From: Jimgerdemannia flammicorona
Taxonomy: Eukaryota
Assembly (NCBI GenBank): GCA_003990765.1
Contig: RBNJ01000011.1
Span: forward strand, 1 to 64,000
Length of the DNA stretch: 64,000 nucleotides
Reading direction: 5' to 3'
A program made the position numbers and the translations under genes. This document shows, piece after piece, positions 6,489 through 48,091 of this stretch (positions are counted from its first letter, which is position 1; every line of letters starts with the position of its first letter). The notes under the pieces were generated by a model. The model did no database searches. It was not told the origin of the DNA and worked only from the letters and a program-made list of their open reading frames with translations.

Positions 6489-7671
6489 GATATTTCTTGA
6501 GTTGGTTTCGATGAATAGTGGTGGAGATTATTGTGCCTGAGAGTTTTCGTAGCCAAAAGGTGGTTCCTTTTATATCTTGCATGAGGTAAGGTCCTTCCCA
6601 CTTGGGCTCTAGTTTTCGTGACCATGAAGCTTCAACCATATTCTGATACACCAGGACTTTGTCTCCTATATTGATAATCTCTAAGAGTTTGTGGGTCTTT
6701 TCCACATTCCTCCATTGTAGTGTCTGCACCTTCGTTATGTAATCCTCAGCCTTCTTCCGAATCTGATATAGTCTCCATATTTCTATATCTACATGTTTCC
6801 ATACAGCATCTCCATTGGATAACAAGGTTCCCTGAGAACATTCTTCTCCGAACAGTATTTCTCGAGGGGTAAAGTGAGTGCTTTGTGATCGGATATCCCA
6901 GAGAGCAGATAATGCTATTGGTAGATAGTGATCCCAGTTCTCATAGTTATCGCAGATCTTGGCAATAACATTCTTGAGGGTTTTGTTGGTCCTTTCTACT
7001 TGTCTGTTTCCTTGAGGGTGATATGCTGTAGTCCAAATATGCTGGATCTTGTACTTCTTGTAGAGAACTTCGAAGAACTGGTTCATGAATTCGGTTCCTC
7101 TATCTGTAGTTACTTGTGTTGGGGTCTTGAACTGGCAGATGATTTCCTTGTGGAAGAAATTGGCAATTGACTGTACATTGGCTTCCATAAGGGGTCCTGC
7201 TTCTATCCATTTTGTAAAAAGGTCTATGATGACAATGATATATCAGTTGCCAGTCAAAGTCAAGGGTAGAGGGCCAATTACATCCATTGCAATATGGGTG
7301 AATGATACTGGTTCTATGTGTGCTGATCCTGGGGCTTGATTTCGTTAGTCTTGTTTCTGTTTCTGGCATTTGTCACAGGTCTTGATGAATTGTCTGATAT
7401 CTTCCTCCATCCCTGGCCACTATATTGTTCTTCTTGCCTTGTCGAATGTATTTGTTCCTCCTAGATGGCCAAGTTCGTGTACTGATTTCATCACTTGCTC
7501 CTTCTTGTGTTCTGGTATGACTAGTAGTTTTCCTTTCTTTAGTGTTTCTCCATCGGTTTCGAATTGTTTCCATGTTCTGTTGATAATCATTTGTGTCCAT
7601 TCTTCCAGATGTTGGGGCATCTTTCACTGTCCCAAGTATGTGATAATTCCATAGTAGAGCTCCTTATTCAT
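6481..7671 (-). pseudogene. Integrase ORF (HHCC, DDE, GPY), separate from RT/RNase H
   Basis: HELGHLGG...CDKCQ, TDRGTEF, AYHPQGNRQVERTNKTL and KLEPKWEGPY. It starts at MNKE, overlapping the RNase H stop. Confidence 0.85.
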
Positions 7672-10600
7672 GGTGATTTTGTAGGGGTGGGGTCCTTCGG
7701 GGTGTCCATGAGAGGACATCTGTATTGGCATTGGTTCTTCCAGAGTGATGTACGATAGTTACATCATAAGCTTGCAACTTCATTATCTATCTGGCATAGA
7801 TTCCTTTGGGTTGTCCAGTTGTCAGTAGCCAGGTAAGAGCTGAGTGGTCCATTTAGATGGTGAAGTGTCTTCCAACCAAGTAGTAGTAGAACTTTTCTAC
7901 AGCCCAGATGACCATGAGGCATTCCAACTTGTAGGATTCATATTCTTTTTCAGCTCCTCGGGTTCCGCGGCTGAGGTATGCAATGACATACTCCACTTTA
8001 TCTTTCTTTTGAGCTAGGACTGCTCCTAGTCCTTGTGCACTTGCATCAGTCTGTAGGATGAACTCTTGAGTCCAGTCAGGCCTTCTGAGGATGGGTGCCT
8101 GGGTCAGTCTGACCTTGAGTTTGTCAAATGCTTTTTGTTCTCTGCCAGTCCACTGGAACTTGGTATCCTTCTTGTTAAGTTCGTAGATTGGTGCCGCAAT
8201 ATTAGAAAATCCTCTAATGAATCTGCGATAATAGGAGGCGAGTCCCATGAAGGCTTGGGCTTCCGTAACAGTGGTGGGTCTTGGGTATGCTGCCACTGCT
8301 TGTATCTTGAGGGGGTCCATGTGTGTTCCATCTCAGTTGATGATGTGGCTGAGATAGGAGATCTCGATTTCTGCGAACTTGCACTTCTTAGGTTTGATGT
8401 AAAGGCCATGTTGTCTTAGTCTCTCTATTATTTGCTGTATGTGCTGCAGATGTTCCTCAGGTGTCTTGCTATAGATAATTACATCATCGATGTAGACCAT
8501 CATCCATCTTCCCATGTCATAGTGGAAGATTTTGTTCATTATTCGCTGGAAACTTGCTGGTGCGTTGCACATTCCGAATGGCATTTGTAGGTAGACGTAG
8601 GTTCCGTCTGGAGTGATGAAAGCTGACTTTTCACTTGCCATATCTGTGAGTCCGATTTGGTGGAATCCTGAGTATAAGTCCAAGGTGCTGTAGTACTATG
8701 CTTCGTCTCTTAGTATTATGAGAATGTCATTGATGAGGGGCAGTAGTTGGCAATCCTTCTTGGTAACCATATTGAGTTTTCTGTAGTTGACACAGAGTCT
8801 TGGAGCGAATTCTCCAGGCTTGTTACCTTTTTTCGGGGCTAGTACAACAGGTGAGGACCAGGGGCTGCTTACTTCTTTAATGATGCCGGCTTCCTCCATC
8901 TGCTTGATTTCTTCTCTGAGCCATTCTTGGTAGGCTGGCAGGACAGGTCTTGCCTTTTGATAAATTGGTTCAGTGTCTCCAGTGTCTACCTCGTGATAGT
9001 AGTGTGGAGTCTTTCCCTTGATATCCTTGAAATCTGTGGCAAGGATGTCCTTGAATTCGTGGAGTATTTTCTTGAGTTCCTCTCTGAGTGGGAATTCGTC
9101 TCCAATGGTGTAACTGTGCTTGCTCGTGTTTTCCTCCTTCCTATACTCGAGTTTGGTGATCTTGGTGCTGGTGAATACTCCTCTTCCCATCGATTCAAAT
9201 CCTTTCTTTCCTCTTTTCATCTCCTCCAGATTCTTGACTTCTATAATCCTTGGCTGTAGGATCAGAAAGATCAACATTTGTGCCAATCAGTCCTTCTTGA
9301 CTGGGAATGGGATTGTAGGATTGTGGTTCCTAGCAATGAGTAGAATTTCTCCGGAGTAGTCTGAATTGATGACTCTTCCTTCAATTGTAATTTCGCTTCT
9401 AGCCAGGCTGCTTCTTGTCTTGAGAATCCCAACATGATCCTTTGGGATGGTCATCTCCAATCTAGTTGCAAGTAGGGTGGTTGTCTGGGGTTCCAGTATG
9501 GTCTCTTCTACTATAGCGATGTCCATTCTAGCTGTGTTTTCTGACTTATATTCTGGCAAGACTGCATCGGGGTGGATCTTTCAAATCTTGACCTTGATTT
9601 CTTCTTCATCATCGCTGTCCTCTAAGAGAGCTGGTGGTTCGTCATCTTCCTCCTTCTCTTCTTCCCTGATCTGTTTTTCAAGAGCTTTCTGTCTTCTTTC
9701 CTAGTAGATCTTCCTGATTCCGATGGTGCACTGGTAGCAGTCATTGACATGCTCCATGCAGTACATCTTGATCCTGTGAGGACAGACTCCTTGTGGTGCA
9801 TACCCTTCTACCATCTTCTTGCACTATTCTTCTTCACTCATCCATCCGACTTTCTTCTTTGGAGTAGTCGCCATATAAGCTTCCTCTTGCTCGCTCTCTT
9901 CTTCCTCCATGTCAGGCAGGACTCCTTTGTAGACATTAATGGGAATTCATATCTTCTGTCCCCGGTAGGTGATCTGCATCTTCTGGGCATTGAGATCAAT
10001 TACTGCCTTGGCTTTGTGAAGCCATTGATTGCTGATAAGAATATCATAGTTGGTGGCATTGGTTATGATTACATCTACTGGGATGGTTGCTCCTCCAATC
10101 TTGATGGGAACATCTCGGATCTTTCCCAGAGGTGTGGCTCTTATGCCATTGGCTGTGATGAATACTAGCTTAGTTGCTTCTTCCACATCCCAACCTAGGC
10201 AGTCTGCTGCCTTCTTGCTGAGGAGACATCCTCCTGCTCCTGTATCAATGATAGCTTCAAAGATTTTATCTTTGATTTGGCATGTTGCATATGCAGATGT
10301 TTTGCGATTGTCCTCACTTTCTTCTCCTGAGTCTTCTTGAGCATTATTGGCCTCGGTTATCTTCCATCCTTGTTCCTTAGTTGTTTTGGCAAGTCCAAAC
10401 CTCATTTGCTGTCTGAATGTTGGGATTTCTGCAAGCTGACCAAAGGTTGCATTGTCTTTTGTTGGCTGAGGTCCTTGAAGATATCATACTTGAAGGTCTT
10501 AGTCTTGCGAAGCTTCTTCTCTTTTTCTCCTTCACTGGCTGGAGTGGTTCCTCGGATGATATCTTGAACTGCTTACTCCAGCTCGATATCTTGGTCCATC

Positions 10601-11653: not shown

Positions 11654-11755
11654 CTTGTCTGAGTATTGGGGCTCAGTTTGGGTAGTGGCAGTTGTTCATT
11701 GTTCAGCTTGAAAGTGAGGGATTCATCTTAAATCACCAGCCAATGGGCACCAAGT

Positions 11756-18402: not shown

Positions 18403-19584
18403 GATATTTCTTAAGTCAGTTTCAGTAAATGGTAGTGGGGATTATTGTATCTGAGGGCCTTTGTAGCCAAAAAGTAGTCCCTTTTATATCTTGTACCAGG
18501 TAAGGTCCTTTCCACTTGGGCTCCAGTTTTTGTGACCAAGAAGTTTCTACTATGTTCTGGTACACTAGGACTTCGTCTCCTATCTTGATAATCTCCAGAG
18601 GCTTGTGGACCTTTTCTGTATTGCTCCATTGTAGTGCCTGTGCCTTGATTATGTAATCCTCTACCTTTTTTCTAATTTGATGCAATCTCCATATCTCCAT
18701 ATCCACATGCTTCCAGACTGTGTCATTATTTGCTAACAAACTTCCACTAGAACTTTCTTCTCCGAATAGCATCTTCCGGGGGTAAAGTGGGTACTTTGTA
18801 ATCTGATATCCTAGAGAGTGGATAATGCTATTGGCAGATAGTGATCCCAGTTTTCATAGTTATCACAGATATTAGCAATAACATTCTTGAGGGTCTTATT
18901 GGTCCTTTCTACTTGTCCATTTCCTTGTGGGTGATAGGCTGTGGTCTAAATGTGCTAGATCTTGTACTTCTTGTAGAGAACCTCAAAGAGCTGGTTCACA
19001 AATTCTGTTCCTCTATCTGTAGTTACTTGTGTTGGGGTCTTGAACTGGCAGATGATTTCCTTGTAGAAGAAATCGGTAATTGACTGTGTATTGGCTTCCT
19101 TAAGGGGTCCTGCTTCTATCCACTTCATAAAAAGGTCTATGATGACAATGATATATCAGTTACCAGTCAGGGTCAAGGGTAGAGGGCTGATTACATCTAT
19201 TGCTATGTGGGCAAATGGTACTGGTTCTATGCATGCTGATCCTAAGGCCTGATTTCGTTGGTCTTGTTTCTATTTCTGACATTTGTCACAGGTTCTGATG
19301 AATTGTTTGATATCTTCTTCTATTCCTGGCCACCATATTGTTCTTCTTGCCTTATCATATGTATTCGTTCCTCTTAGATGGCCAAGTTTGTGTACCGATT
19401 TCATCACTTGCTCCTTCTTGTGTTCTGGTATGACTAGTAGTTTTCCTTTCTTCAGTGTTTCTCCATCAGTTTCGAATTGTTTCTATGTTCTGTTGATAAT
19501 CATTTGTGTCCATTCTTCCAGATGTTGGGATATCTTTCACTGTCTTAGGTATGTGATAATTCTATAGTAGAGCTTCTTATTCAT
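18392..19584 (-). pseudogene. Integrase ORF, copy 2
   Basis: Colinear with copy 1, includes KLEPKWKGPY, and its ATG lies in CATGAATAA. Confidence 0.85.
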
Positions 19585-22500
19585 GATTGATTTGTTGGTT
19601 GGAGGTAGTTCAGGGTGTCTGTGAGAGGGCATCTGCATTGGCATTGGTTCTTCCAGAGTGGTGTACAATGATTACATCATAAGCTTGCAACTTCATTATC
19701 TATCTGGCATAGATTCCTTTAGGTTGTCCAGTTGTTAGTAGTCAGGTGAGAGCTGAGTGGTCCATTTGGATGGTGAAGTGTCTTCCAGCCAAGTAGTAGT
19801 GGAACTTTTCTATGGCCCAGATGACTGCGAGACATTCCAACTTATAGGATTTGTATTCTTTTTCAGCTTCTTGGGTTCCGTGACTGAGGTATGTGATGAT
19901 ATACTCCACTTTATCTTTCTTTTGAGCTAGGACTGCTCCTAGTTCTTGTGCACTTGCATCAGTCTGTAGGATGAATTCTTAAGTCCAGTCAGGTCTTCTG
20001 AGGATGAGTGCCTGGGTCAGTCTGACCTTGAGTTCATCAAATGCTTTTTGTTGTCTGCCAGTCTACTAGAACTTAGTATTCTTCTTGTTAAGTTCATAGA
20101 TTGGTCCAGCAATATTAGAAAATCCTCTAATAAATCTGCGATAATAGGAGGTAAGTCCCATGAAGACTTGGGCTTCCATAACAGTGGTGGATCTTAGGTA
20201 TGCTGCCACTGCTTATATCTTGAGGGGGTCCGTATGTGTTCCATCTTAGTTGATGATGTAGCTGAGATAGGAGATCTCGATTTCTATAAATTTGCATTTT
20301 TTGGGCTTGATGTATAGATCATGCTTTCAGTCTTTCCATTATCTGCCAGATGTGCTGCAGGTATTCTTCTGGTATCTGGCTGTAGATGATTACATCATCA
20401 ACATAGACCATCATCTATCTTCCCATGTCATAGCAGAAGATTTTGTTCATCATTCACTGGAAACTTACTGGTACATTGTACATTCCAAATGGCATTTGTA
20501 GGTAGATGTAGGTTCCATCTGGGGTGATGAAAGCTGACTTTTCACTTACCATGTCTGTGAGTCTGATTTGGTGGAATCCTGAGTATAAGTCCAGAGTGCT
20601 ATAGTACTATGCTTTATCTCCCAGTGTTATGAGAATGTCATTGATGAGGGGCAGTGGTTGGTAATCCTTTTTGTAACCATGTTGAGCTTTCTGTAGTCAA
20701 CACAGAGTCTTGGGGCAAATTCTCCAGGCTTGCTGCCCTTTTTTGGGGCTAGTACAACAGGTGAGAACCAGAGGCTGCTGGCTTCTTTAATGATACTAGC
20801 TTCTTCTATCTGCTTGATTTCTTCTCTGAGCCATTCTTGGTAGGCTGGTGGGACAGGTCTTGCCTTCTGATAAATTGGTTCAGTGTTTCCAGTATCGACT
20901 TCATGATAGTAGTGTGGGGTCTTTCCTTTGATATCCTTGAAATTTGTGGTAAGGACATCTTTGAATTTGTGGAGTATTTTCTTGAGTTCTTTCTTGAGTA
21001 AAAATTCATTTCTGATGGTGTAGCTGTGCTTACTTGTGTTTTCCTCCTTCTTATGCTCGAGTTTGGTGATCTTGGTGCTGGCAAATACTCCTCTTTCTGT
21101 GGATCCAAATCCTTTCTTTCCTCTTTTCGTTTCCTCCAGCTTCTTAACTTCTATGATCTTTGGTTGTAGGATCAGAAAGATCAACATTTGCGCCAATTGG
21201 TCCTTCTTCTTGACTGGAAATGGGATTGTAGGATTGTGATTCCTAGCAATGAGTAGAATTTCCAGCTCCTTTCTCCACTACCTTACCGGTCACAAGGTTT
21301 GGTAGGTGATCTTCTGAGTCCCCTTTCCCCTATTATTACCCCCTCTACCTTGGGTTGGTTTGCTGTGCCTGCAGAGGCATGGTGGGAGGAGGGCAATGGT
21401 GATGAGTTACCCCTTTATCAGTGTCAGATTGGTGCTTCCTCCACTTTTTTGCAGATTCTGGTGCCTTTGGCTGCATCTGGGGTGTACCCATTTTGGTGCG
21501 GTGCCTTCTTCCTTTTGCCATCGCCAACAAGGTGTTGTCTCAGTGTGTCTCGGGCTATGTAGGGAGTCGGCCGACCTTGGGCGTCAAGTGCTCAGTGTAG
21601 GTTACCTGCAGGTCTTCGATGCCTGTGGTGGGGCCCTCTGGCTTTGGCGAGCTTCCCAGTGAGTGCAGTTCTGGTGTAGGTGACTGCTTTTCAGGTGTTG
21701 TCAGGATGGGAGGGGAGATGGCCATCACAGATAGGCAGAAGGGCAATTATGGTGGACCAGTAGGGTGCCAGGCTGGGGGCAGTCATCAGGGCTGGGGCAG
21801 GTGCTGCTTCGGTGGGGCCTTTTGATTGGTGTGGCATGGTTAGGTAGTAGGTGTCACTATCGGCTTCCTTTGGTGGTCAGCGGGGTTGGGCCCCAGTCGT
21901 CAGGGGGGGTCAGGAGGCCTGAGGCTACCCATTTCAGGTGTCTTGGCTGCACTCAATGGGAACCGGAAGCTGACATGGCAACATGATCGAGGCCCGCAGG
22001 CTTGAGTAGTGGGGTATTGGGGGTTTCCTCCTGCCTCACGTGTAAGTCCTTTACTCACCTCAACTGAGAGAACCAGGCCCTATCCACTGTGTTGTACTTT
22101 GATGAGGGTTTTTTATTTGCCTGTCATTCTCTTTGGGGTGGCAGGGGCTATTCTATTTGGCTCGGGCATGGCCTTGTACATATGTTGGGTTCTCAGGTGT
22201 GCGCTTTTGGTCATCGGTGTATGGTTGGGTTTCCCCTGGTGGTAGGGAGAGCATGGTGCATAGAAAGAGGTATGGGCCAACATAGGCCCTGCTGTGCCTG
22301 GCATGGTCGAGCTGCTGGATAATAGCTAGCCTAAGTTAATGGGGGGGCAGTGCTTGGTGGGTGGTGGGGGAGGGTTTTGGCCTATATAGTCTAGGTTCCC
22401 TTCCAATAAAATTCCATGGGACATGAGTCCATTAAAAAAAAAAATGAGTAGAATTTCTCCAGTATAGTCTGAATCAATGACTTCTCTTTCAATTGTGATT

Positions 22501-26307: not shown

Positions 26308-26429
26308 ATAGAGATCTCTCACACGACTTTCTCCAGTAACATTCAGATTACACAATCTTTTGGCAACACTTTCGACACAGTTTCTGGAGACAAGCTACTA
26401 GTATCATAGCGACCAATGAGCATCCAGAG

Positions 26430-28434: not shown

Positions 28435-28464
28435 GGATTGATTGAGAACAAACTGTATTTCATC

Positions 28465-31400: not shown

Positions 31401-31961
31401 ATTAGTGATGGCATCAAATGCCAAAGGGGACCAGGCCAGGATCTGTGACCTAGTGGTTGGCAAGGAGTTAGAATTGGTGAGGAGTGGGACTGGCATGGGG
31501 TCTGGACCTGGAATGCTGCAGTGAAAAATTGGATGCTGCCAAAGTACTGGGTGGTCTGGTGGCGCAAGCTGAGGAGGAATGTGATACTTAACTTCTGCTC
31601 AGAACACCTTATTGTAGGGAGCTGCTTTGACTGCAAGGAGTGCCATAATGTAGGGCAGGAAGGGGGATTTGTACAGATGCTGGAACATTGGCTAGGGGAG
31701 TGTGAGATGTTGGGAGACTTTTGGCAGGCCATTGGGGACCACTTGGAGGTAAGGCGTACAGGTGATGATGTATGGAGGAGGTGGGAGGACCTGAGGGATC
31801 GATTGATAGGAGGGGTAGGGGAGAAGTGGATTACTTTAGGCTGGGCATTGGCTATTTGGATTGGGCTGCCAGTCACTGGCTATTTGTATTTGAGGAGGAG
31901 AGGCAACAGAGCTTGGAGAGCTAGTTATCATGGTGGCAGTGCCTTATGGAGGATATCTTGA
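28465..31961 (+). pseudogene. ORF2: AP endonuclease, reverse transcriptase and C-terminal Cys/His domain
   Basis: SLNVNRL, LLQD, GGDFN and SDH (APE); APGEDGLP, QRGF, LDQEKAYD, GVPQGDPLSP, FADD and YLG (RT); CFDC..C...HWLGEC. Several premature stops. Confidence 0.9.
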
Positions 31962-33950
31962 CAGGCTGGTGGCTTGGTTGGGGGCTGCAGGAGAGTTGGA
32001 GGCACCACTTGGTGGTGAAAATCTGTGGTCAGAGTGGTGGGAGAGTTGGAGTTGTTGGTGAGAGGGTGGTCTTTATATATGAAGAGGTGGGGAGGGGCCC
32101 CCCAATGGGGATTGGATAGTGGGTGGTAATATTGTATACTTATTCATAGACTGGTAATAAAGATGGAGTCCAAGGGACTATAAAAAAAAAATAAAAAAAA
32201 TAAAAAAAATAGAGATCTCTTATGTAGATATTTAGACTTGGAGTCCTTCTTATATGTAACCTTATTGCCCTCTTGATATTGGAGAATATTTATTCTTAAA
32301 TAGATAGATCAGAATGACTCCTTGATCTTACTATTTAATAGATAATAGATATTTTGTTTTATAGTAAGTCTTTTATTTATAATTTGATATTTTGTACTTC
32401 TTCTCTTAATACTTCTTTTATATCTTAAGAGTCTTCTTCTTTGGTCTAGAGGATAGGGTCATCTGATTTGGGATAGTATACTATTAGATTTATTATAAGT
32501 CATTATGAGTTCAGATAGAAATCATCTTCTGATCAAGATGAGTTACAGTTGATTTATAACTTATAACTAGTAGCTTGTAAAGTCAAGACAGTCTTCTGAA
32601 TTCTGATGTCACTGATTTTGAAGATATTATCATAATAGTTATATTCAAATAATATCTATATTACTATCAGATATAAATATAAAATTCCTAAAAATATTAT
32701 AGATAGTATTCAATTACTATCAATTCCTATTATAATAGTATATTAGATTTTAAATATATTTGATATAACTGACTCTATAAAAAAGATTATCTTTGATAAT
32801 ATTGTATTTTTGTTAGTAATAAAATTAGATTCTTATGAGTATGGTGAACTTTTTGTAACATATTTTCAAAATGGGGCTAATATTACCTCATACTACTTTT
32901 AGTAAATAAGTAATTATTCAGATAAGCTTTCTAAGAAATATTTTAATAATATTCACCCATGGACAATATTTAAGTCAATGTAATCTTTATAATTATTCTA
33001 TATAGAAAAGTCAAGGAAGTTAAAAAAATAGTATTTATTATTCTAATATATTAATTATAAATTCTACTAAAATACTAAGTTTCACTTTAATATTAGTCTA
33101 TTTATTATTAGGTTTTCTAGTATAATATAACTCTGTAATTATATAAAAAGATATCTAAAATATTAAATTATAGAGTCAGAATTTTAAGTTACCATTAAGT
33201 AGTAGAGATATTAAGATATCAGTTATTAAAAATATTTAGACATACTTGGATATATAATTATATAACTAATTTTGTGAGTAGCAAAATTGAAGTGATCTAT
33301 TTTATATAATATATATAGATATTATTTATTTCTAGTATAATATATCTCTGTAGATATATAGAAGAATATCTAGAATATCAAAATACAGAGCCAGAATTTT
33401 CAATTACCATTTGGTAGTAAAGATATTAGCTATTAAAAATGTTAGAGTATATTTAGATATATAATTATATGTATATATATTGTGACAATATAGCCAGATT
33501 CGGAAGAAGGAAATAGGGAATAGACACTTGATCGCACCCAGTCTCAAAGTAGTATAGCTACATAGTTAATAGTCCTCGATTTTGCAACTTGCTAAATATT
33601 TCACAAAGTGCAAGATTGAGCTTCCTGATATAGTATAGCATTTCGCAACTGGCGAAATATTTCGTAAAGTGTTAAATAACTCATAATTTAGCCATGTAAC
33701 CCAGTAACCATCTTATAGCTAGCAAACTTGTATAAATAACCCAGTATCTTTGAGTGAATAAACCTCAGATCAAAATAGTTCAAAGCAAAGAGATAGCAAA
33801 GGAACTAGTAAGCCTGTGGGCAGATATACTTCGAACTCACCCACCCTCCCCTGTAACTTCAAGAGACTCTGTGAGAGTCAGAACAGTCAAGTCTTCAAGA
33901 TACAGAAATCCGACATACTTTCAAGAGTAAGCATCTGTTACATTACAACT

Positions 33951-33968
33951 TGGTGCCCATTGGCTGAT
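33951..33968 (+). promoter_or_regulatory. Primer-binding site candidate TGGTGCCCATTGGCTG
   Basis: Starts with TGG 3 nt after the 5' LTR in all three copies. The priming tRNA is not assigned. Confidence 0.7.
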
Positions 33969-34061
33969 GATTCAAGATGAATCCCTCACTTTCAAGCTGA
34001 ACAATGAACAACTGCCACTATCCGAACAACTATACAAACTGAGCCCCAATACCTAGACAAG

Positions 34062-37000
34062 ATAGATATAAGACCACCAGTATTCCATGGATATACCTCA
34101 GATGAATCAATCATCACCTTCATTGATGATTTTGAGCAGTATGCCACTGTAAGGACCCTGACAGCAGCACAGCAAGTAACCCTCATGCCCTTCAGCCTAC
34201 GAGGCCCTGCCAGAGCAGCATTTACAGCCGCAACCCATGCAGGAAATGATGCCAATACTATACTGATAGCACAGAAGACCTGGCTCCAAAATACATATTA
34301 CACAGATGAGATCAAGCAAGCTCTGAAGGATCAGCTCAACACAACATACTAAGGAATGAGCAAGGATCCAAATACATTCTATACCAGAATTCAATATCAG
34401 ATAATCCTTACAGATTATACTGCTGCTATCTGAGATCAAGTAGCCGAAGCAATCTTCATGAAAGGAGTCCATCCAGAAATAGCCATGGCCATCTGCTCAT
34501 CACCAGTAATTCTGGATCTGCCACAGAAGGTCATCTATACTCAGCAATACTGGATAGCCAGACATCCACAAGACCATACAATGGAAAGGATCACAGGAGT
34601 CAGAATCGAGGTACTTAAGGCAACCAGTATGATCTCTACCACAATGATCAATTGGAACACATCTCAGCCAAAAGCTATAGAGCAGCAGAAGAACAGTGAC
34701 CCTATGGAGGAACTCATCAAAAGATTTGCTGAAATGACTGCCCACCTGGGAGACATGGTAAAGGAAATTCGAGGAAGAGACTGCTGCCCTGTCCAGAAGT
34801 TTGCCACCACCTCAGATAAGAAGAAAGGCACCTGCTATACTTGTGGAGAAGAAGGCCACTACTTCTATAAATGCATGAGTAAAACCAAGTACAAGGCTCA
34901 ACCAAGCAATGTCATACAAAATAAGGAACAGGCCAATACAATTACCTTCGAGGACATCAGAGACTCTGATGAAAAAGAATGAGAGGCCTATCCTGCTCAG
35001 ACCACCAGGAAGACCCAAGAAGAACTCAGTGGAAAAGTAGATGGAAACTACTACAGAAAGCCAAGCTGAAGAGATAGACCAAGATACAGAGCTAGAGCAA
35101 GCAGTTCAAGATATCATCTGAGAAACTACTCTAGCCAGTGAAGGAGAAAAAGAAAAGAAGCTTCGCAAGACCAAGACCTTTAAGTATGATATCTTCAAGG
35201 ACCTCAGTCAACAAAAGGTCAATGCAACCTTTGGTCAGCTTACAGAAATCCCAACATTCAGACAGCAAATGAGGTTTGGACTTGCCAAAACAACTAAGGA
35301 ACAAGGATGGAAGATAACTGAGACCAATAATGCTCAAGAGGACTCAGGAGAAGAAAGTGAGAACAATCGCAAAACCTCTACATATGCAACATGCCAAATC
35401 GAAGATAGAATCTTCGAGGCCATTATTGATATGGGAGCAGGAGGATGTCTCCTCAGTAAGAAGGCAGCAGACCACCTAGGTTGGGATGTGAAAGAAGCAA
35501 CTAAGCTGGTGTTTGTCACAGCCGATGGCACAAGAGCTACACCTCTGGGAAAGATCCGAGATGTTCCTATTAAGATTGGAGGAGCAACCATCTCAGTAGA
35601 TGTAATCGTAACCAATGCCACCAACTATGACATCCTCATCGGCAATCAATGGCTTCACAAAGCCAAGGCAGTAATTGATCTCAATGCCCAGAAGATGCAG
35701 ATCACCTACCAGGGACAGAAGATATGAATTCCCATCAATGTCAACAAAGGAGTCCTGCCCAACATGGAGGAAGAAGAGAGCGAGCAAGAGGAAGCTTATA
35801 TGGTGACTACTCCAAAGAAGAAGAAAGTTGGGTGGATGAGTAAAGAAGAATGGTGCAAGAAGATGGCAGAAGGCTATGCACCACAAGAAGTCTGTCCTCA
35901 TGGGATCAAGATGTACTACATGGAGCATATCAATGATTGCTACCAGTGCACCATTGGAATCAGGAAAATCCACCAGGCAAGAAGACAGAAAGCTCTTGAA
36001 AAACAGATCAGAGAAGACAAGAAGGAGGAAGATGACGAACCACCAGTCCTCCTGGAGGACAGTGATGATGAAGAAGAAATCAAGATCAGGATTCGAAAGA
36101 TCCACCCTGATGTAGTCTTGCCAGAATACAAGTCAGAAAATGCAGCTGAAATGGACATCACTACAGTAGAAGAGACCATACTGGAACCCCAGACAACTAC
36201 TCTACTTGCAACTAGATTGGAGATGACTATCCCAAAGGATCATATCGGGATTCTCAAGACAAGAAGTAGTCTAGCTAGAAGTGAAATTACAATTGAAGGA
36301 GGAGTTATTGATTCAGACTACACCAGAGAAATTCTACTCATTGCTAGGAATTACAATCCTACAATTCCATTTCCAGTCAAGAAGAAGGACCAATTGGCAC
36401 AAATGTTGATCTTTCTAATCCTACAACCAAAGATCATAGAAGTTAAGAAGCTGGAGGAAACAAGAAGAGGAAAGAAAGGATTTGGATCCACAGGAAGAGG
36501 AGTATTCGCCAATACCAAGATCACCAAACTTGAGCATAAGAAGGAGGAAAATACAAGCAAGCATAGCTACACCATCAGAAATGAATTTCCACTCAAGAAA
36601 GAACTCAAGAAAATACTCCACGAATTCGAGGACATCCTTGCCACAGATTTCAAGGATATTAAGGGAAAGACCCCATACTACTATTATGAGGTAGATACTG
36701 GAGACACTGAACCAATTTATCAGAAGGCAAGACCTGTCCTGCCAGCCTACTGAGAATGGCTCAGAGAAGAAATCAAGCAGATGGAAGAAGCTGGCATCAT
36801 TAAAGAAGCCAGCAGCCCCTGGTCCTCACCTGTTGTACTAGCCCCAAAAAAAGGAAGCAAGCCTGGAGAATTCGCCCCAAGACTCTGTGTCAACTATAGA
36901 AAACTCAACATGGTTACCAAGAAGGATTGCCAACCACTGCCCCTCATCAATGACATCCTCATAACACTGGGAGATGAAGCACAGTACTACAGCACCTTGG

Positions 37001-38016
37001 ACTTATACTCAGGATTCCACCAAATCGAACTCACAGATATGGCAAGTGAAAAGTCAGCTTTCATCACTCCAGACGGAACCTATGTCTACCTATGAATGCC
37101 ATTTGGAATGTGCAATGCACCAGCAAGCTTCCAGCGAATGATAAACAAAATCTTCTGCTATGACATAGGAAGATGGATGATGGTCTATGTCAATGATATA
37201 ATCATCTACAGCAAGACACCTGAGGAACATCTGCAGCACATACAGCAGATAATGGAGAGACTAAGATAACATGGCCTTTACATCAAACTCAAGAAGTACA
37301 AGTTCACAGAAATCAAGATCTCCTATCTCGGCCATATTATCAACTGAGATGGAACACACATGGACACCCTCAAAATACAAGCAGTGGCAGCATACCCAAG
37401 ACCCACCACTGTTATAGAAGCCCAAGCCTTCATGGGACTTGCCTCCTATTATCGCAGATTTATTAGAGGATTTTCTAATATTGCAGGACCAATCTATGAA
37501 CTTAACAAGAAGGATACCAAGTTCCAGTGGACTGGCAAACAACAAAAAGCATTTGATGAACTTAAGGTTAGACTGACCCAGGCACCCATCCTCAGAAGAC
37601 CTGACTGGACTCAAGAATTCATCCTACAGACTGACACAAGCGCACAAGGACTAGGAGCAGTCCTAGCTCAAAAGAAAGATAAAGTGGAGTATGTCATTGT
37701 ATACCTCAGCCACGGAACCCGAGAAGCTGAAAAAGAATATGAATCCTATAAGTTGGAATGCCTCACAGTCATCTGGGCCATAGAAAAGTTCTACTACTAC
37801 TTGGCTGGAAGACACTTCACCATCCAAATGGACCACTCAGCTCTTACCTGGCTACTGACAACTGGACAACCCAAAGGAATCTATGCCAGATGGATAATGA
37901 AGTTGCAAGCTTATGATGTAACCATTGTACATCACTCTGGAAGAACCAATGCCAATGTAGATGTACTCTCACAGACACCTCGAAGGACCCCACCCCTACA
38001 AAATTGCCATGAATAA
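34062..38016 (+). pseudogene. gag-PR-dUTPase-RT-RNase H, copy 3
   Basis: ORFs starting at 35269, 35764, 36781 and 37360 are all in one frame. dUTPase shows GILKTRSSLA, GGVIDSDY, LAQMLI and RGKKGFGSTG. A small deletion near 35010 shifts gag. Confidence 0.9.
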
Positions 38017-39206
38017 GGAGCTCTACTATGGAATTATCACATACCTGGGACAGCGAAAGATGCCCCAACATCTGGAAGAATGGACACAAATGATTATCAA
38101 CAGAACATGGAAACAATTCGAAACTGATGGAGAAACACTGAAGAAAGGAGAACTACTAGTCATACCAGAATACAAGAAGGAGCAAGTGATGAAATCAGTA
38201 CATGAACTCGGCCACCTAGGAGGAATGAATACATATGATAAGGCAAGGAGAACAATATGGTGGCCAGGGATGGAGGAAGATATCAGACAATTCATCAAGA
38301 CCTGCGACAAATGCCAGAAACAGAAACAAGACCAACAAAATCAAGCCCCAGAATCAGCACACATAGAACCAGTACCATTCGCCCACATTGCAATAGACAT
38401 AATTGGCCCCCTACCCTTGACCTTAACTAGCAACTGATACATCATCATCATTGTAGACCTTTTTACAAAATGGATAGAAGCAGGACCCCTTATGGAAGCC
38501 AATGCACAGTCAATTGCTGATTTCTTCCACAAGGAAATCATCTGCCAGTTCAAGACCCCAACACAAGTAACTATAGATAGAGGAACAGAATTTGTAAACC
38601 AGTTCTTCAAAGTTCTCTACAAGAAGTACAAGATCCAGTATATTCAGACTACAGCATATCACCCTCAAGAAAACAGACAAGTAGAAAGGACCAACAAAAC
38701 CCTCAAGAATGTTATTGCCAAGATCTGTGATATGTAACTACGAGAGCTGGGATCACTATCTACCAATAGCATTATCTGCTCTCCGAGATATCCAATCACA
38801 AAGTACTCACTTTACTCCTCAAGAAATGCTGTTCAGAGAAGAATGTTCCCAGGGAACCCTGTCATCCAATGGAGATGCCGTATGGAAACATGTGGACATG
38901 GAAATATAGAGACTACACCAAATCAGGAAGAAGGCTGAGGATTACATAATGAAGGTGCAGACACTATAACAGAGGAATGCAGAAAAGACCCACAAATCCT
39001 TGGAGATTATCAAGATAGGAGACAAAGTCCTGGTGTATCAGAATATGGTCAAAGCTTCATGGTCACGAAAACTGGAGCCCAAGTGGGAAGGACCTTACCT
39101 TGTGCAAGATATAAAAGAAACCACCTTTTGGCTACGAAAACCATCAGGCACAATAATCCCCACCACCATTCATCGAAACTGACTCAAGAAATATCATGGC
39201 CAGTAA
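38009..39206 (+). pseudogene. Integrase ORF, copy 3
   Basis: ATG at 38009 lies in the +1 frame relative to RNase H (stop 38014-38016). HHCC, DDE core and GPY motifs are present. Confidence 0.85.
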
Positions 39207-39656
39207 CAAAAGTACTACAATGGCACTCAAGATCACTAGTGCTGCCCAAAGAGCCATCGAGAGACAATGGTGCACCACTGAGCCTCCAACCATAGAGGAG
39301 TCTTATGACAGTATCCAAAGCATCATGCAGACTCATCTCCTTGGATCCCACACTTCAAGGCCTATCAGCATTGGAATGAATTCCAAGAGTACTTCAAACT
39401 CAGCCAAGTACTCAACCAAGACCCAGAAATGACCAAAGAAAATTGGATCATAGAATGCCAGCTCTCCTATTCCCAGATCACCATTGCCAAAAGAATCCAC
39501 AAGCTATTCTGAGAGGATGAATCAGCATTAGTCCACCTGTGAGGAGTGACTCCCTCAGACTTCGACTGAGTCAGGTGACACTATTGGGAAACAGTGATGT
39601 AATAAATCGCACAATACAAGACTATACAGACCATTGAAGCTTAGAAGTTTGAATAG
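39196..39656 (+). pseudogene. Accessory ORF3, copy 3 (1-bp deletion)
   Basis: MASNKSTTMALKITS..., colinear with copies 1 and 2. Confidence 0.7.
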
Positions 39657-39943
39657 ATGCTTTAGGGATGAGATCATCTATTCAGGAGGAAGTTGTGATG
39701 GTATAGCCAGATTCAGAAGAAGGAAATAGGGAATAGACACTTGATCGCACCCAGTCCCAAAGTAGTATAGCCACATAGTTAACAGTCCTTGATTTCGCAA
39801 CTTGCTAAATATTTCGCAAAGTACAAGATCGAGCTTCCCAATATAGTATAGCATTTCGCAACTGGCGAAATATTTCGCAAAGTATTAAATGACTCATAAC
39901 TTAGCCACATAACCCAGTAACCATCTTATAGCTAGCAAACTTG

Positions 39944-39975
39944 TATAAATAACCCAGTATCTTCAAGTGAATAAA
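39944..39975 (+). promoter_or_regulatory. LTR TATA box (TATAAA, 39944) and poly(A) signal (AATAAA, 39970)
   Basis: Motifs read directly and present in most family A LTRs. The upstream U3 region has a duplicated TTTCGCAAC..AAATATTTCGCAAAGT motif. Confidence 0.5.
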
Positions 39976-40190
39976 CCTCAGATCAAAATAGTTCAAAGCA
40001 AAGAGATAGCAAAGGAACTAGTAAGCCTATGGGTAGATACACTTCGAACTCACCCACCCTCCCCTGTAACTTCAAGAGACTCTGCGAGAGTCAGAACAGT
40101 CAAGTCTTCAAGATACAGAAATCTGACGTACTTTCAAGAGTAAGCATCTGCTATGTTACAATATATAGAGTGAGTTAAAAAGTGAAGAGA

Positions 40191-41067: not shown

Positions 41068-44000
41068 CTGTCACCCAAGAAGAAAAACATACAAATCACT
41101 ACTTATACCCAAGAACTCATTCCAATAAGAAAATTGCTCACAGATATTTAACTTTGACTATTATACCACTAAATATCAAGAACATTTTATTACTTTTAAC
41201 AAAGTAACTGAGGGCTTAAGCCAAACTATGCTAACCCCCAACCTTGTAATTTATCTCTATTGAGTCAGGCATATTACATTTAGAGACTCAACTAGAAAGA
41301 TTTCAAATTGATATAACTTTTTAGCTTATAAGAACCCATAGTCAAACTGGATATATTTGATATAATACTAATCTCTACTACTACAGAAGAACCAGTCATC
41401 ACTAACATTTGGATAGAAAGAGAAGTAATTACTTCAAGACTTACCAACTACTCAATATCAGAGAAATCCCAACCAGAAGTCAGTATAGTACAGAATCTCC
41501 AGCCAGTACTAACAGACTTATTATAGGATCAATCAGACCAACCAGATTACACAGACAGCTCTGCCAGAGTTTTTGATGAGCTTGGACAATAGTTTGAAGA
41601 CCTTATTGCATAAGTCTGAGTTCTTGTAGAAGACCTACTAATTTTGTCCATTGATTCTCTACTACTAGCTACTATAAAATAGGAAGATCAAGAAATAGCT
41701 CCATTAAGGATACCCAGATCTATTCTATCTCACTCAAGATCTCCAACACCATTCTTAAGATATCCAAGTATCCTGAACTCCAGTAATAACACAGAAAGTA
41801 AATTAGAATCAGAATTAGATTTAGTACCAAGATTAGAACCAGAACTAGAATTAGAAGACAGTGATAACAAAATGGCTACCCCATTGCCAACCTTTGTAGG
41901 ATACTCTGAAGAAGATCCAAGAAAATTCCTTAATAGAATAGAAGAAATTACAGCTCTGAAAAATCTTACTTCTGAAAGAAAAATCACTATCTATAAGACC
42001 CAACTCAGAGAACCAGCCAAAGGAATTTTTACCTAAGTATATAATGATCCAAACTCAGACCTTGGAGCAGTCATTATTGCAGTAATAACTTAGCTAGTAG
42101 AGTATCAAGCTATGATCCACTGACTTATTGAGAAGTATACAGAAAATGGGATTTACTATAAAGCTTAAGAATCTATTATAGAGATAAAGATGAATCTTAA
42201 AGAATTACCCAGAGCATTCTTCATAAGAATTCAGAAGAGAATGTATGTAGCTAGGTTCAATACCACTATATAAAATACCCCAGAGATAAGAGTGAATAAA
42301 TCTCAGTCTAAAAAGTTCAAAAGCAAAAGACAAATCTATCTGCCATACTTTGAAAAGAACTTTAAAGCCACTACTAAGAGATTGTAAGCTTACTTTCCAC
42401 TTTGGTCTACTTTTTGATATAAAGAATAAGTCTGCTATATTTTTGGTTTACTTATCAGATAAGTCTGAAGAATTCAAAGAAGTCCACCTCTTATTACAAA
42501 GTCAGTCTTTAGATATAACTTTGCAGTGAACTTATTTATACAAATTAAGTTAGTTTTGATATAACTTTACTAAGAGAAGAATCTGCTATTCCCAGAGAGC
42601 TCTATAGGAATCTTACCACAAGCCAATCTATCTGATATAACCTTATAGTAGAGCTAGTCTATGATATAACTCTATATAAATAAAGTCAGTCTTTGATATA
42701 ACTTGTTAAAAATCTATATTATCTGAGTTATTTCTCAGAAGTCTACTAATTTAAGAAGAATTTACATCATCTACTATTTTTGAGTTCTCTGCTAACCTAG
42801 TTATCTAAGTTACTCAAGTTATCTAAGTTATCAAATAGTGCTCTGAACGAGTCAATCTGGATGGAATTTGGATGGATTTGAATCCCATCTGGATCAACTT
42901 GGATTGGATTCGAATCCCATCTGGATCAACTTGGATGGGATTCGAATCCCATCCAGATGGATTTGAATCAACCATTGTTTTGATTTCTAAATTGGATAAT
43001 TAAATGTTTATATCAATAACTCAATGAACAATCATCCAAATTTGATGATCTTGGTGTCATTTGAAAGCCCTTAATAAGGCCTATCTAATGATATCAAGAA
43101 CATTGAAATCCAATCATACGTTGCTGAGTTATGAAGGAAACCATCTGAATTGCTGATTTTGGAAATTTCATCAAATAGAATGTTTTCCTTAATATATCGG
43201 CAATGCGTAATCCGATTTTAATGTTCTTGATATCATTAGAAAGGCCTTATTAAGGGCCTTCAAATGACACTAAGAGAATCAAATTTGGATGATTATTCAT
43301 TGAGTTATTGATATAAACATTTAATTGTCCAATTTGGATTTTTTTTTTATTATAAAACGAGTAGATAATAGCAGAAGAGGTTTGAGTGAGATGTGATACT
43401 GTTACGGCGGATATGAAGGTCGGCAGTAAAAGGTCAAACAGTTATGAAAAGCTTATGTGAATTTTCACGACGGAACAGAAAGCGGAATAAAGTGTTTTCC
43501 GAAGCAAGGTGCAATAGATCTGCAACCCGCCCACGGCACCGCAGTTGCGATGGTCTTTATTCAATTTGAGAAACAAAGTTCGGATAAACAAAGACACGGA
43601 TCTAACCCCGGAATTCCGGAATCGGACAGGTGCATAAGTACCCGAGCCTTGCCCCGATCCAAACAAAGGTCTGAATCGGGCTTTGTCGATCTACACACGT
43701 GACAGGCCATTAAAAACCCGATATAGAAACAATCGGGAAAAGGTACCGGTCACGTGATCTAATGTTACACAATCAGTAAACAATGCCAAAAACGGAACTA
43801 GACCAATGATGCAACATGTGTCGTCACGTGATTGTCACTTATAGGTTTAAAAACCTAAAAATTGTCGGCACCCGAAGGCGCAGGCGTCAGGCCTAGAGCC
43901 TCGTGACCGGAGCGGAGTAGAGCCTCGGCACCGGAGCGAGCAAAGCGAGCAGAGGTAGACAGGCGTCACAGAGCATAGGTATGCAGGTGTCAGGCCTAGA

Positions 44001-44074
44001 GCCTCGCGCCGGAGGTTGTCCGGCAATTTTTCGCGTTTTTAAACATCGCACGGCACATACAAGCGGTGCGGCCT

Positions 44075-46081
44075 TCAAGGAGGAATTAAAGCGAAGCTGG
44101 TGTTTGAGACAGCATTAAGAACGGTAAAACCATTCTTCCGGGCGATGATCGGTCGTCGGGCAGTCGCAGGGAAACCAAAATGAAGCAAAGCGGTACGTAG
44201 AGTCTTGTCGGGCTGTTGATGTAGCCATCGGGCCGTGTCGTATTGGATGACAAGCAACGGGGGAGGAAAAGCGGAGTGGGGGATGGGGGGGTGGGAAATA
44301 AGAGGAGGGGTGAGAAGTGAAGTTCGGACCTCAAGCCAATCAACCAAACTCAATTAAGCGGTTACAACATCAACAGGGTATCCTTTCCTGTGAACCAGGA
44401 ACTCAGCCAAAGACCAACACTCATCAAGCCAATCACGGCGAGAAGAGCAGAGAAGCGAAAGGCGGCGGGCCTCATTTACGATGCATAGACGGAGTGTCTT
44501 CCTAGGATGATTGCTCAACCAGTCAACAAACTGAGTACTACGCGGGAACTTGGCAAAGTGGCCTGTGTGGAACAGTGCGACTCGGATTTCCAGGTCTAAG
44601 TAATGGCACGGTCCAGTGGACAAGACTTCCCATTCGATACGATGGTGCGGAGGGTACACGGCAGCAAAGATCGAGGCCAAGTCCATAATCGCGGGCGTAA
44701 AGACGATAAGATCATCAATATACCGGTGGAACTTTAGCCCAGCAGCGACGGCTCGGCTAAGCAGATGATCGGGCGCTTGCAAGGCGCGCAACTCATGAGC
44801 GAAACCAACAAGATTGGCAAGATCCAGAGCACAATTAGTGCCCATAGCAATACCAGTCACAGAGCAGAAGGAACCGATGGTGGATGTAAACGTCATACGA
44901 GTCATGACTATGTGGACAAGGCCGAGAATGGCTTCAAGCGGCAAAGAGCCAGGGGGAAAGGCCACCGTCGACAAAAAGGTGAGGCAGTCAATGCACTTAT
45001 CTAATGTGATCCTGGTGTAGAAGGCGGCGAAATCTCCAGTAGCAACGTATGAGCAATCTGACACATCAAGGTAATCCGATCGAACCAATTGAAGCAGTTC
45101 GAGCGTATCACGTAAAGGTGAATAACGGGAGTAACCCACATTATGGCGCAGATGGGCCGACCACAGACGGAGAAAGCGAGATAGGAAACGCGAAATCTCG
45201 GTCGTAGGAGAGTTAAACGCACCAACGATAGGGCGCCATGCCACGTGAGCTCCTTTGTGTACCTTGGGCAGAGCATGAAACACGGGTAGCTTACAATTGA
45301 TGGGCTCCATGAGGTGTTCCCAAATCGGCATACAATTATGATTACCGATGCAGAACTCGAGTAGACCAAGAAGGTCTAGCCTCACTGATTCCTTAACGTT
45401 ATCAATCGTAGAGGGATCATACACATACGCAGGATCGTGAAGGAGAGACCGAAGACCGTCGAGATATAGAGCGCACGGTATAACGGTGAACCCCAGATTT
45501 TTGTCAGTAAGACAGACAGTGAAGTCGTCATGAGTATGGATGCCTTTAAGAAGGCGGCGGAACTTCTTCGGTACAAGCACGCCGGACACATTCGTCGTGG
45601 GTCGGACAGCTTGATTCAAAGCGGCACTCATATGGAGCATAATTTGCATATTTTCCATACAATGCGGCGGTCACCATTTAGATGGCACCCAGGCAGAGAT
45701 CTCCAGGACGTCGTCAGGATTACCCATAGAGGTCCAGAAGGTGGCAAGGTCGAGACGCCGTTGGAACGACGACAACGAAATCGGGTCGATGGTGCTGTTC
45801 ATCGATGCCGACCCGGGGAGAACGAACTTAGGGCCAAAGTTCAGCATATACGTGAGCTCGGGGGTAAGCCAAGGCAGAGGTATATTGGTAACAAAGCCCT
45901 CCTTGGTAAACATCCGAAACCGAGGGACGAAAAACTGACTTAAGCAAGAACCGGGAAGAGAAGACACGAAGGCAAAATCTTCAATTGGTGTCGAGGCCGC
46001 TACCCCACGTGGAATGGGGACATCAGGGCCAAACCACACTGCCAGGAAGTCGTATAAGACTTCCGGGCTGGGGACCTCTAG
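44075..46081 (-). pseudogene. PLE reverse transcriptase ORF2 (arm A; two in-frame stops)
   Basis: PLE motifs LNFGPKF, TDKNLG, FHALPKVHK..WRPIV...SPT, GDFAAFYTRI, GIAMGTNCA.DLANL, RYIDDL, YLDLEI, WLSNHP and GYP. Confidence 0.88.
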
Positions 46082-47238
46082 TTTTTCGACGCTAGAGGGC
46101 AGGCATCACCGGCGTTATGCCAGATGACATGATGTTTAGCGGCAGTACACTTGTTGCACTGCGGCACAAATGCCCTGGCGGTGCTCTTAGACGAGCGGCT
46201 CGAAGTCGACGAGCGGCTGGTCCCGGTAGAAGCAGAAGAAGCAGACGGGGAAGGCGAAGCCTTACGTGCTCGCTTGACCCCTTTTACAGAACCCTCGGTC
46301 ACAGCCGGGGCTAGGGGGCAAGGACCTCGGTGGGCCTTTGTAGGCACACCAAGGCGTCCAGAACAGCTATGGCAGTTCGGCGCAACAGAAGCCGAGGTCA
46401 CCTTCACCTCCTTCACCTTTCCCGCAGCCCCCGCAGGCGCGGCAGTAGAGGGTAGGGGGGTGGGGACACTCTTTTTCGGTCGGGCGGAACCGGCGGCAGC
46501 AGAAGCAAATGTGCGTTTGGCACCTGGAGTAACAATCTCGGGGCGCTTCCCAAGCTCCTCAACTGCGGCTTTGCGGGCGGCAGCGGAAATCCCATCTTGC
46601 AGGGAGGAGGACACAGAGGCTATCGGGCAGACAGCAGCGGCAGCGGCTTTGGCAGCGGCGGTGGCGGCGAGACGGTGAGACTGATGCACGACAACGTCAA
46701 AACCACGGAACAAGAACAAGTTTGTCTTAGCTCTGTCAGTGGCAGCAAGGGTAGCGATATTCTTGGCTACCCCAAGAGTGATATCGACCGATACACCAAA
46801 AAATTGATGGGCATTGGAAGAACCACCCATGGCCTTGTCGATTTTAGCATGCTGGTCCTTAGTATGCTGGGCGGCAGCTTCCTGATCAGAAATGGCAGCC
46901 TCGATCGCGGCAGTGGCACGGTGCTTAGCTTCTGCCAAAGCAGTAGTAAGGGCGGCATCATGCTGTTCCTCAGGTAGGAGGGCGATGGCAGCAGCTACCT
47001 TCTTGGAAGGAGTAAACCTCCAATCGGCAACTTGGGCCCATAGGAAATCGGCACAGCATTCTTTCGCGGCGGCGACCTCAAGGGCGGAGAGCACTCCGGT
47101 GCAAGCAGCACGGAAGTAGGTAGGGACCTCGGCAGACGTGGCAGCAACGTAGGCTGCAAGGTTGTCGAACTCTGCCAAATCGGCGAAGGAAGCTTTGGGG
47201 ATGGCAGCATCGCCATCTATATTCATATTATCTATCAT
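46078..47238 (-). CDS. PLE ORF1, 386 aa (Ala-rich helical N-terminus, two CxxC..H..C motifs), open frame
   Basis: Uninterrupted ORF starting 6 nt after the pLTR end. It is colinear in arm B and in the decayed copy. Confidence 0.75.
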   Translation of the reverse strand: MIDNMNIDGDAAIPKASFADLAEFDNLAAYVAATSAEVPTYFRAACTGVLSALEVAAAKECCADFLWAQVADWRFTPSKKVAAAIALLPEEQHDAALTTALAEAKHRATAAIEAAISDQEAAAQHTKDQHAKIDKAMGGSSNAHQFFGVSVDITLGVAKNIATLAATDRAKTNLFLFRGFDVVVHQSHRLAATAAAKAAAAAVCPIASVSSSLQDGISAAARKAAVEELGKRPEIVTPGAKRTFASAAAGSARPKKSVPTPLPSTAAPAGAAGKVKEVKVTSASVAPNCHSCSGRLGVPTKAHRGPCPLAPAVTEGSVKGVKRARKASPSPSASSASTGTSRSSTSSRSSKSTARAFVPQCNKCTAAKHHVIWHNAGDACPLASKN

Positions 47239-47956: not shown

Positions 47957-48091
47957 CACGTGACGACACGTGTTGCGTCATTGGTCTAGTTCCATTTTTG
48001 GCATTGTTTACTGATTGTGTAACATTAGATCACGTGACCGGTACCTTTTCCCGATTGTTTCTATATCGGGTTTTTAATGGCCTGTCACGTG
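47957..48091 (+). promoter_or_regulatory. Cluster of four CACGTG E-boxes with CCAAT and TGTTTAC motifs in the pLTR (putative promoter)
   Basis: CACGTG at 47957, 47967, 48031 and 48086, ATTGG at ~47980 and TGTTTAC at 48005. The cluster recurs in the other pLTR copies. Confidence 0.5.

Follow-up and report, generated by a model that had tools for sequence, protein, structure and literature searches.

How does a long terminal repeat (LTR) retrotransposon supply its integrase when the Pol reading frame closes before the integrase domain begins? This question is raised by a 64,000-nucleotide (nt) stretch of the Jimgerdemannia flammicorona assembly (contig RBNJ01000011.1, positions 1 to 64,000 of the forward strand; hereafter the window), which contains three copies of one Ty3/Gypsy LTR element with pairwise identities of 88-91%. 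In LTR retrotransposons and retroviruses integrase is cut from Pol, and the ratios of the products are set by gag/pol frameshifting, readthrough or degradation. The element of the window belongs to Ty3/Gypsy (Metaviridae) by its LTRs, by its domain order of protease, reverse transcriptase (RT), RNase H and integrase, and by its RT and integrase families, and it groups with the dUTPase-bearing Gypsy elements. However, the integrase that the family usually obtains from a single Pol open reading frame (ORF) is found here in another frame past a stop codon, in the three copies and in 12 related loci, a departure that concerns the usual mode of expression and not the phylogeny of the family. From the comparisons described below we hold it to be very likely that the split between RNase H and integrase is a real, selected feature of a lineage and not decay, and we consider it probable that the best overall explanation combines a three-cistron layout with termination-reinitiation.

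The ten-base junction CATGAATAAG is present in all three copies: TAA closes the RNase H frame, and 5 bases before it lies the ATG of integrase, in the +1 frame. In the forward-strand copy c3 (38008..38017), pol reads CAT GAA TAA and integrase reads ATG AAT AAG from the ATG at 38009-38011, in a +1 frame that is open from 37961. The corresponding reverse-strand junctions are located at 7658..7672 in c1 and 19571..19585 in c2, with the A of the ATG at 7671 and 19584, respectively. The 15-mer CATGAATAAGGAGCT occurs three times in the window (38008-38022 on the forward strand and the two reverse-strand intervals just given, the one in c2 with 1 mismatch); shuffled sequence has a mean of 0.33 occurrences, and none of 100 shuffles reached three. 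A three-way alignment displayed no indel among the copies near the junction. The initial annotation had described an overlapping stop/start in all three copies, with ATGs at 38009, 7671 and 19584, and these coordinates matched on re-checking. It had also remarked that the second copy keeps the offset and the junction in spite of a different linker, which the alignment confirmed: the c2 linker directly upstream is far more diverged than the remainder, yet CATGAATAAG is unchanged.

To place the junction outside this genome, metagenome contigs were searched, which returned 462 relatives, and 80 loci were kept. Among them, L001 shares 82% integrase identity with the window and is near-intact, its gag-pol frame being open for 1001 codons up to the edge of the locus. 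The pol frame of L001 ends ...NADALSRMPRRTQPPYNHHE-TAA on a CATGAATAAGGAG identical to that of the window, ending at CATGAATAA, and its integrase is read in the +1 frame with 1 internal stop. Between the window and L001 the proportion of synonymous differences (pS) is 0.53-0.70, with synonymous sites near saturation, and the ratio of nonsynonymous to synonymous change (dN/dS) amounts to 0.089 over 402 codons of RT-RNase H and to 0.102 over 391 codons of integrase. These similarly low values indicate that integrase was under the same purifying selection as RT while both lineages carried the junction.

More distant split relatives (37-43% integrase identity) keep the geometry constant while the junction sequence changes. 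The integrase ATG is present in all 12 split loci checked as DNA, and in each of them the first base of the pol stop falls -5 to +8 nt from the A of that ATG. Relative to pol, integrase lies in the +1 frame in the window, L001, L006 and L008, and in the -1 frame in L002, L003, L004, L005, L009, L010, L011 and L017. The junction reads CATGAATAG in L006, ATGAACACTGA in L008, ATGGATCTAG in L002, ATGA in L003, L009, L010 and L017, TAATG in L004 and L005, and TGAtcATG in L011; the forms found among related loci also include ATGAATAA/G. As RNA, these correspond to AUGAAUAA in the window and L001 and to AUGAAUAG, AUGA, UAAUG, AUGGAUCUAG, AUGAACACUGA and UGAucAUG in the relatives. As a separate observation, a C/A-rich tract (CCCCACCCC-like) that encodes a Pro/Thr-rich linker recurs upstream in many split loci; it lies at 37985-38005 in the window and upstream of the L002, L004, L008, L010 and L011 junctions, 5-40 nt before the integrase ATG, and could be a candidate cis signal.

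A survey of frames across the 80 loci separated close from distant relatives. At integrase identities of at least 37%, integrase and the RNase H motif occupied different frames in 9 of the 9 loci with a motif, and at identities of 35% or less they shared one frame in 29 of 30; no motif was found in 41 of the 80 loci, mostly for want of upstream sequence. The single discordant locus at low identity (L048) was set aside, its motif match looking like chance in GC-rich sequence. We also looked at two runs of related contigs. The soil metagenome run contained many of them (1155 pieces aligned), with relatives along the entire stretch, although the share of the sequence found was small both there (0.11) and in the second run (0.08); no RNA run was among those listed as containing the sequence. 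The 2-3 contigs that cross the junction show only a compensating +1/-1 pair near it, which at this number is a weak check.

The protein relatives of integrase present the same picture. Using the c1 integrase with X at its stops as query, 189 relatives of 218-695 residues (aa) were obtained, and the following counts come from the best 120. An intact 433-aa integrase (P0126) shows 74% identity to the query, and dozens of free-standing integrases of about 410 aa show 40-48% identity and cover 99-100% of it. Altogether, 78 of the 120 proteins listed are 380-470 aa long, and 70 of these 78 begin MN, MD or ME. In an alignment of 24 integrases picked for full coverage, a Met occupies the column of the window ATG in 24 of 24, with 22 starting there and sharing the motif MNxELYY. 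Since the best match among longer proteins (696-2000 aa) reaches only 33% identity, fused integrases are all distant. Met-Asn, Met-Asp and Met-Glu N-termini are substrates of NatB acetylation, and these starts would fit an integrase that retains its own initiator Met. Among Atlas clusters of stand-alone integrases, the nearest consists mostly of Mucoromycota proteins, and a second one, of 407 aa, mostly of proteins from Rotifera. A soil-dwelling fungus of Mucoromycota type would be a plausible host.

The search with RT-RNase H gave 1564 relatives, of which the best 120 were counted. The nearest are 45-50% identical Gypsy-type Pol proteins with gag, protease, RT and RNase H domains and no integrase domain, and proteins of Rhizophagus irregularis and Rhizopus delemar are among those near relatives that lack integrase. 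They end 2-30 residues past the ADALSR motif that closes RNase H, with C-termini such as ...YNHE in P0007 and ...SDHE in P0012, compared with ...NCHE in the window. Sorting the 120 by a motif rule gave 29 whose end comes no more than 45 residues past RNase H, 70 fusions with integrase, 16 of other types and 5 with no motif. A dUTPase domain is present in P0007, P0008, P0009, P0011, P0017, P0030 and P0086, and among the matches listed each dUTPase-bearing nearest match ends within 45 aa after ADALSR. Two other relatives (P0012 and P0014) carry a NUDIX (MutT-like) domain at the N-terminal end, before the protease, and no dUTPase; P0014 is named '8-oxo-dGTP pyrophosphatase MutT/predicted aspartyl protease' in one source. 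These proteins seem to have acquired another nucleotide-sanitising enzyme instead of dUTPase. A FastTree phylogeny of the RT-RNase H region places the window in a starred clade whose 8 rows comprise 7 split and 1 unclear, next to a group of 27 (21 split, 6 unclear), and the other 85 rows comprise 73 fused, 10 unclear and 2 split. This tree is quick and midpoint-rooted, with weak deep branches, and does not settle a single origin of the split.

Our assignment of the split to the lineage is supported by the near-intact L001, which has the same junction with a selection on integrase equal to that on RT, by the free-standing integrases, many of which start at the same Met, and by the nearest gag-pol proteins, whose ends come just past RNase H. 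The view of the initial annotation that the split is not post-insertion decay is upheld jointly by the L001 junction, the dN/dS values of about 0.1, the aligned Met and the stop/start proximity in 12 loci. Relatives of the kind that it proposed to look for are the near-intact L001, with its 1001-codon gag-pol frame, and the intact P0126 integrase. A continuous RNase H-integrase frame in younger or consensus copies, which it had named as evidence against its view, was looked for among the relatives and the related contigs and was not found.

How, then, would integrase be translated? In the normal layout of this lineage, the full-length RNA carries three cistrons: gag-protease-dUTPase-RT-RNase H in one frame without a gag/pol shift, a free-standing integrase of about 400 aa, and a small ORF3. 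The integrase AUG is on or beside the stop of the first cistron, as AUGAAUAA here and as AUGA, UAAUG and similar forms in the relatives. Ribosomes that terminate at the pol stop would be partly retained and restart at the integrase AUG, so that integrase would arise independently of Pol, starting with a Met of its own, and in smaller amounts than Gag-RT; ORF3 would probably be reached likewise from the integrase stop. Reinitiation is favoured because its signature is a start codon that stays with the upstream stop in either frame relation. On this comparative geometry, we judge termination-reinitiation to be somewhat better than an even proposition for integrase, and it is the most likely mechanism, which would have a corresponding effect on protein ratios.

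The third cistron is seen in c3 as an ORF3 of about 150 codons (39196..39656, forward strand), whose ATG lies inside CAT GGC CAG TAA at the end of integrase and which is broken in this copy by a 1-nt deletion and by stops. ORF3 is conserved between the window family and L001 (4184-4645), and +1-frame ORFs of 135-230 or more codons also follow integrase in L002 (4232-4639), L003 (4229-4921), L005 (from 1678) and L008 (from 2998). In the window and in these five loci ORF3 begins within the 3' end of integrase, in the +1 frame. The ORF3 relatives share a motif like EFQxYFxLGQ, and a Pfam search with ORF3 from four loci gave no match save one at chance level (E 0.084). The overlap fits a serially coupled three-cistron RNA.

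Several observations weigh against this explanation. Most of the 'free-standing' proteins are automatic gene calls on short metagenome contigs, and since such callers cut at any stop, the argument rests on the intactness and the common start of these proteins and not on the calls themselves. Minimum free energy folds of 120 nt at nine junctions gave z-scores of -1.97 to +2.33 and no shared helix, in a test that covers neither pseudoknots nor rRNA complementarity, and inspection of the window and L001 by eye revealed no UGGGA motif of the calicivirus type. Reinitiation past a 4-kb ORF usually requires a cis element or a trans factor, and neither was identified here. The ORF3 start is located 17-68 nt before the integrase stop in L002, L003, L005 and L008, a looser arrangement than that between RNase H and integrase. 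Finally, a TGA inside integrase (38435-38437) is common to the three copies where the relatives read Arg; either CGA>TGA mutation struck this near-saturated site three times independently, or the copies received the stop from a common master.

The alternative that survives best is that a spliced or subgenomic mRNA of its own serves for the translation of integrase, as for retroviral env. Retroviruses and some LTR elements use spliced messages for downstream ORFs, and the ORF3s of rotifer elements are so described in PMC5408684. The long and variable ORF3 overlaps and the junction folds, which gave no cis structure for reinitiation, are also in agreement with a separate message. However, such a message gives no reason for a stop and an ATG to stay within -5 to +8 nt of each other in 12 of 12 loci despite changing sequence and frame. 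Moreover, no conserved acceptor-like AG was seen, the upstream CAG of the window being CGG in L001. We therefore regard a separate mRNA as unlikely, and, of the two routes between which the initial annotation had not chosen, the comparative geometry as favouring translational coupling over a subgenomic RNA.

A programmed +1 frameshift at GAA-TAA-G, producing a Pol-integrase fusion in which the ATG is incidental, is considerably less plausible still. The window family would need a +1 shift where a stop codon stands, with GAA read, T skipped and AAG read to enter the integrase frame; shift sites of this kind are known, from Ty1, Ty3, antizyme and Euplotes. Against this, sister lineages would need opposite shifts (-1 in eight loci, +1 in the window and three others) and no slippery motif common to the split loci was found. 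In addition, a fusion has no need of an ATG, which is nevertheless kept in 24 of 24 aligned homologues and 12 of 12 split loci. The idea that the offset was inherited from one integrase-defective master mobilised in trans, the working form having a continuous Pol, draws on the heavy decay of all three copies, on the integrase stop at 38435 common to them and on the fact that three copies alone cannot separate a master's defect from a family trait, but it is exceedingly improbable and already largely refuted by the same junction in L001 across near-saturated synonymous change with an integrase dN/dS of 0.10, by the intact P0126, by the fact that no fused integrase above 33% identity was found and by the compensating pair as the only frame change near the junction in the related contigs.

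Taking termination-reinitiation as the preferred mechanism, a broader proposal may be made, which we regard as evenly balanced: a deep Ty3/Gypsy clade, including dUTPase and NUDIX forms, plentiful in soil metagenomes and represented by named members from Mucoromycota-type fungi and possibly from rotifers, would have dropped the single Pol. Its members would express gag-protease-RT-RNase H, integrase and ORF3 from genomic RNA by serial termination-reinitiation, and the efficiency of restart, not a gag/pol frameshift, would set the amount of integrase per particle.

The three copies of the window are old, dead members of this lineage with ordinary post-insertion decay, and none of them has intact frames. 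There are 5 internal stops in c3 pol and 4 in c1 integrase, and nearly all stops are found in just one or two of the copies, the others reading CGA, CAA, CAG or TGG at that place. The decay stops in c3 integrase are at 38435, 38907, 38967 and 39180. Of 851 private differences among the copies, 786 are transitions, and 520 of these are C>T or G>A. The observed/expected CpG ratio is 0.15-0.31 in the internal regions of the copies vs 0.45 in L001, and comparison with the other copies puts most of the C>T changes outside CpG; a process linked to methylation or resembling repeat-induced point mutation could be at work. Private length changes include a 4-nt insertion near the gag end in c1 and, in c3, a 4-nt insertion near 38731 that breaks integrase and is absent in related contigs, as well as a 38-nt deletion between gag and pol that shifts the frame of one with respect to the other. 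In c2, an open run of 341 codons leads from the gag knuckle into protease, which shows that gag and pol share one frame; this run, together with the single frame open in relatives, is in agreement with the earlier claim that the element has no gag/pol frameshift.

Three further candidates were rejected in view of these changes. The gag/pol offset of c3 is explained by its 38-nt deletion, and a second +1 shift at the integrase stop 38735, of Euplotes-type appearance, is actually the 4-nt insertion private to that copy. A variant genetic code, suggested by in-frame TGA and TAA in pol, was discarded given that the stops are private to copies at CGA, CAA, CAG or TGG sites and that L001 has none in 1001 codons.

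Copy c3 extends from about 33480 to 40161 on the forward strand, as defined by LTR alignment and repeats. Its LTRs of about 470 nt have TG...CA termini and are located at 33480..33948 (5') and 39693..40161 (3'), with approximate ends given by the alignment of both LTRs and by direct repeat D4 at 93%; a purine tract precedes the 3' LTR. Over 300 nt, the LTR pairs are 96% identical in c1 and 93% in c3. The gag part (34008..34982) contains a CCHC knuckle and 3 decay stops and is off the pol frame solely through the private deletion; the knuckle is weak (zf-CCHC, E 0.003, below the Pfam cut-off). The protease-dUTPase-RT-RNase H frame (35122..38016) ends at the TAA at 38014-38016, and within it Pfam recognises an aspartyl protease, dUTPase (PF00692, 7.4e-23, residues 333-458), RVT_1 (5.4e-29) and RT_RNaseH_2 (1.4e-31). 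The dUTPase is placed between protease and RT, and the same domain is found in the nearest relatives. The integrase ORF (38009..39206, stop TAA at 39204-39206) has an H2C2 zinc domain (Integrase_H2C2, 6.8e-19), an rve core (1.5e-9) and a GPY-type C-terminus. The other two copies are on the reverse strand: c1 at about 5517-12165, defined by repeats and alignment, and c2 at about 17452-25345. The latter carries a 1195-nt foreign insert (alignment columns 3013-4207), which is 78-85% alike to window positions 14766-15794, between c1 and c2 (repeats D13 and D18), and probably represents a solo LTR or a further family of repeats.

The sequence between repeats has a GC content of 21-28%, and the element one of 41-47%. 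Amid this background, positions 26000-32000 form a block of 51% GC with a GC skew of +0.40 to +0.48 and long ORFs on both strands. Further downstream (43545-52140 and 60688-63419) there are two inverted arms of 4.2 kb, 96% alike and 166 nt apart (I1), and a third copy that is 71-78% alike. Each arm contains two ORFs, one RT-like (438-504 aa, YIDD-type) and one Ala-rich, of about 400 aa. These arms may be a DIRS-like or other non-Gypsy retroelement.

The significance of the split lies in a whole lineage in which integrase forms a separate, strongly selected cistron, joined by a stop/start overlap of the restart type known from RNA viruses. For annotators of transposable elements, it means that such elements are not to be scored as frameshifted or dead at the RNase H/integrase junction. 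If reinitiation holds, it would be a new expression strategy for LTR retroelements, would provide compact natural restart signals that function after a 4-kb ORF in a eukaryote, and would account for the orphan genes called 'integrase' or 'transposase InsO' and the 'Pol' proteins devoid of integrase that automatic annotation lists by the thousands for fungal genomes and soil metagenomes.

Searches of the open full-text literature found no LTR retrotransposon described as having its integrase coupled by a stop/start, a scope that leaves aside subscription journals, Repbase reports and supplements. The dUTPase-bearing Gypsy elements, such as Juno, Vesta and TelKA of bdelloid rotifers and those of basidiomycetes, resemble the present element in having dUTPase between protease and RT, a GPY-type integrase end and ORF3s after pol, as far as the available portion of PMC5408684 describes them. 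That same portion gives their pol as protease-RT-RNase H-integrase, with no split mentioned. In contrast to these rotifer elements, the nearest named relatives of the window are of Mucoromycota type, and its genome background has 21-28% GC. With canonical Ty3/Gypsy Pol and the +1 frameshifting of Ty1 and Ty3, the element shares LTRs, the order gag, protease, RT, RNase H followed by integrase, and a +1 change at a defined site. It differs from them in that the frame change is between RNase H and integrase and not between gag and pol, and in that the frame relation is variable and the start codon conserved.

Closer parallels are provided by the stop/restart systems of fungal and animal RNA viruses, which include Cryphonectria hypovirus 1 (UAAUG), Helminthosporium victoriae virus 190S (AUGA), the caliciviruses and influenza B M2 (PMC10275272; PMC2699510). 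As in those RNA viruses, the downstream AUG overlaps or abuts the stop of a long upstream ORF, and the very forms UAAUG and AUGA are found in L003, L004, L005, L009, L010 and L017. The viral systems, as there described, rely on mapped upstream RNA elements (a termination upstream ribosomal binding site, TURBS, or a pseudoknot), whereas none was found in the folds made here. They also differ in that the template here is a retrotransposon RNA, the product is integrase and the overlap in the window family is 8 nt (AUGAAUAA). The non-LTR element SART1, the sole retrotransposon named among reinitiation cases in the available part of PMC10275272, has an overlapping stop-start UAAUG for ORF2. In this case the likeness is that of a retroelement; the differences are that SART1 is non-LTR, that its junction is between ORF1 and ORF2 and not between RNase H and integrase, and that it needs a downstream structure.

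Among reverse-transcribing relatives of Ty3/Gypsy, the Caulimoviridae have ORF ends that closely abut or overlap. In cauliflower mosaic virus consecutive ORFs are read by reinitiation, according to PMC10275272. These viruses differ from the present element in requiring a virus-encoded transactivator (TAV) and in having no integrase; a TAV-like domain was not detected here, ORF3 being without a Pfam match. If termination-reinitiation is correct, the element of the window would belong to the first LTR retroelement lineage shown to use stop-restart, in parallel with the polycistronic strategy of the caulimoviruses.

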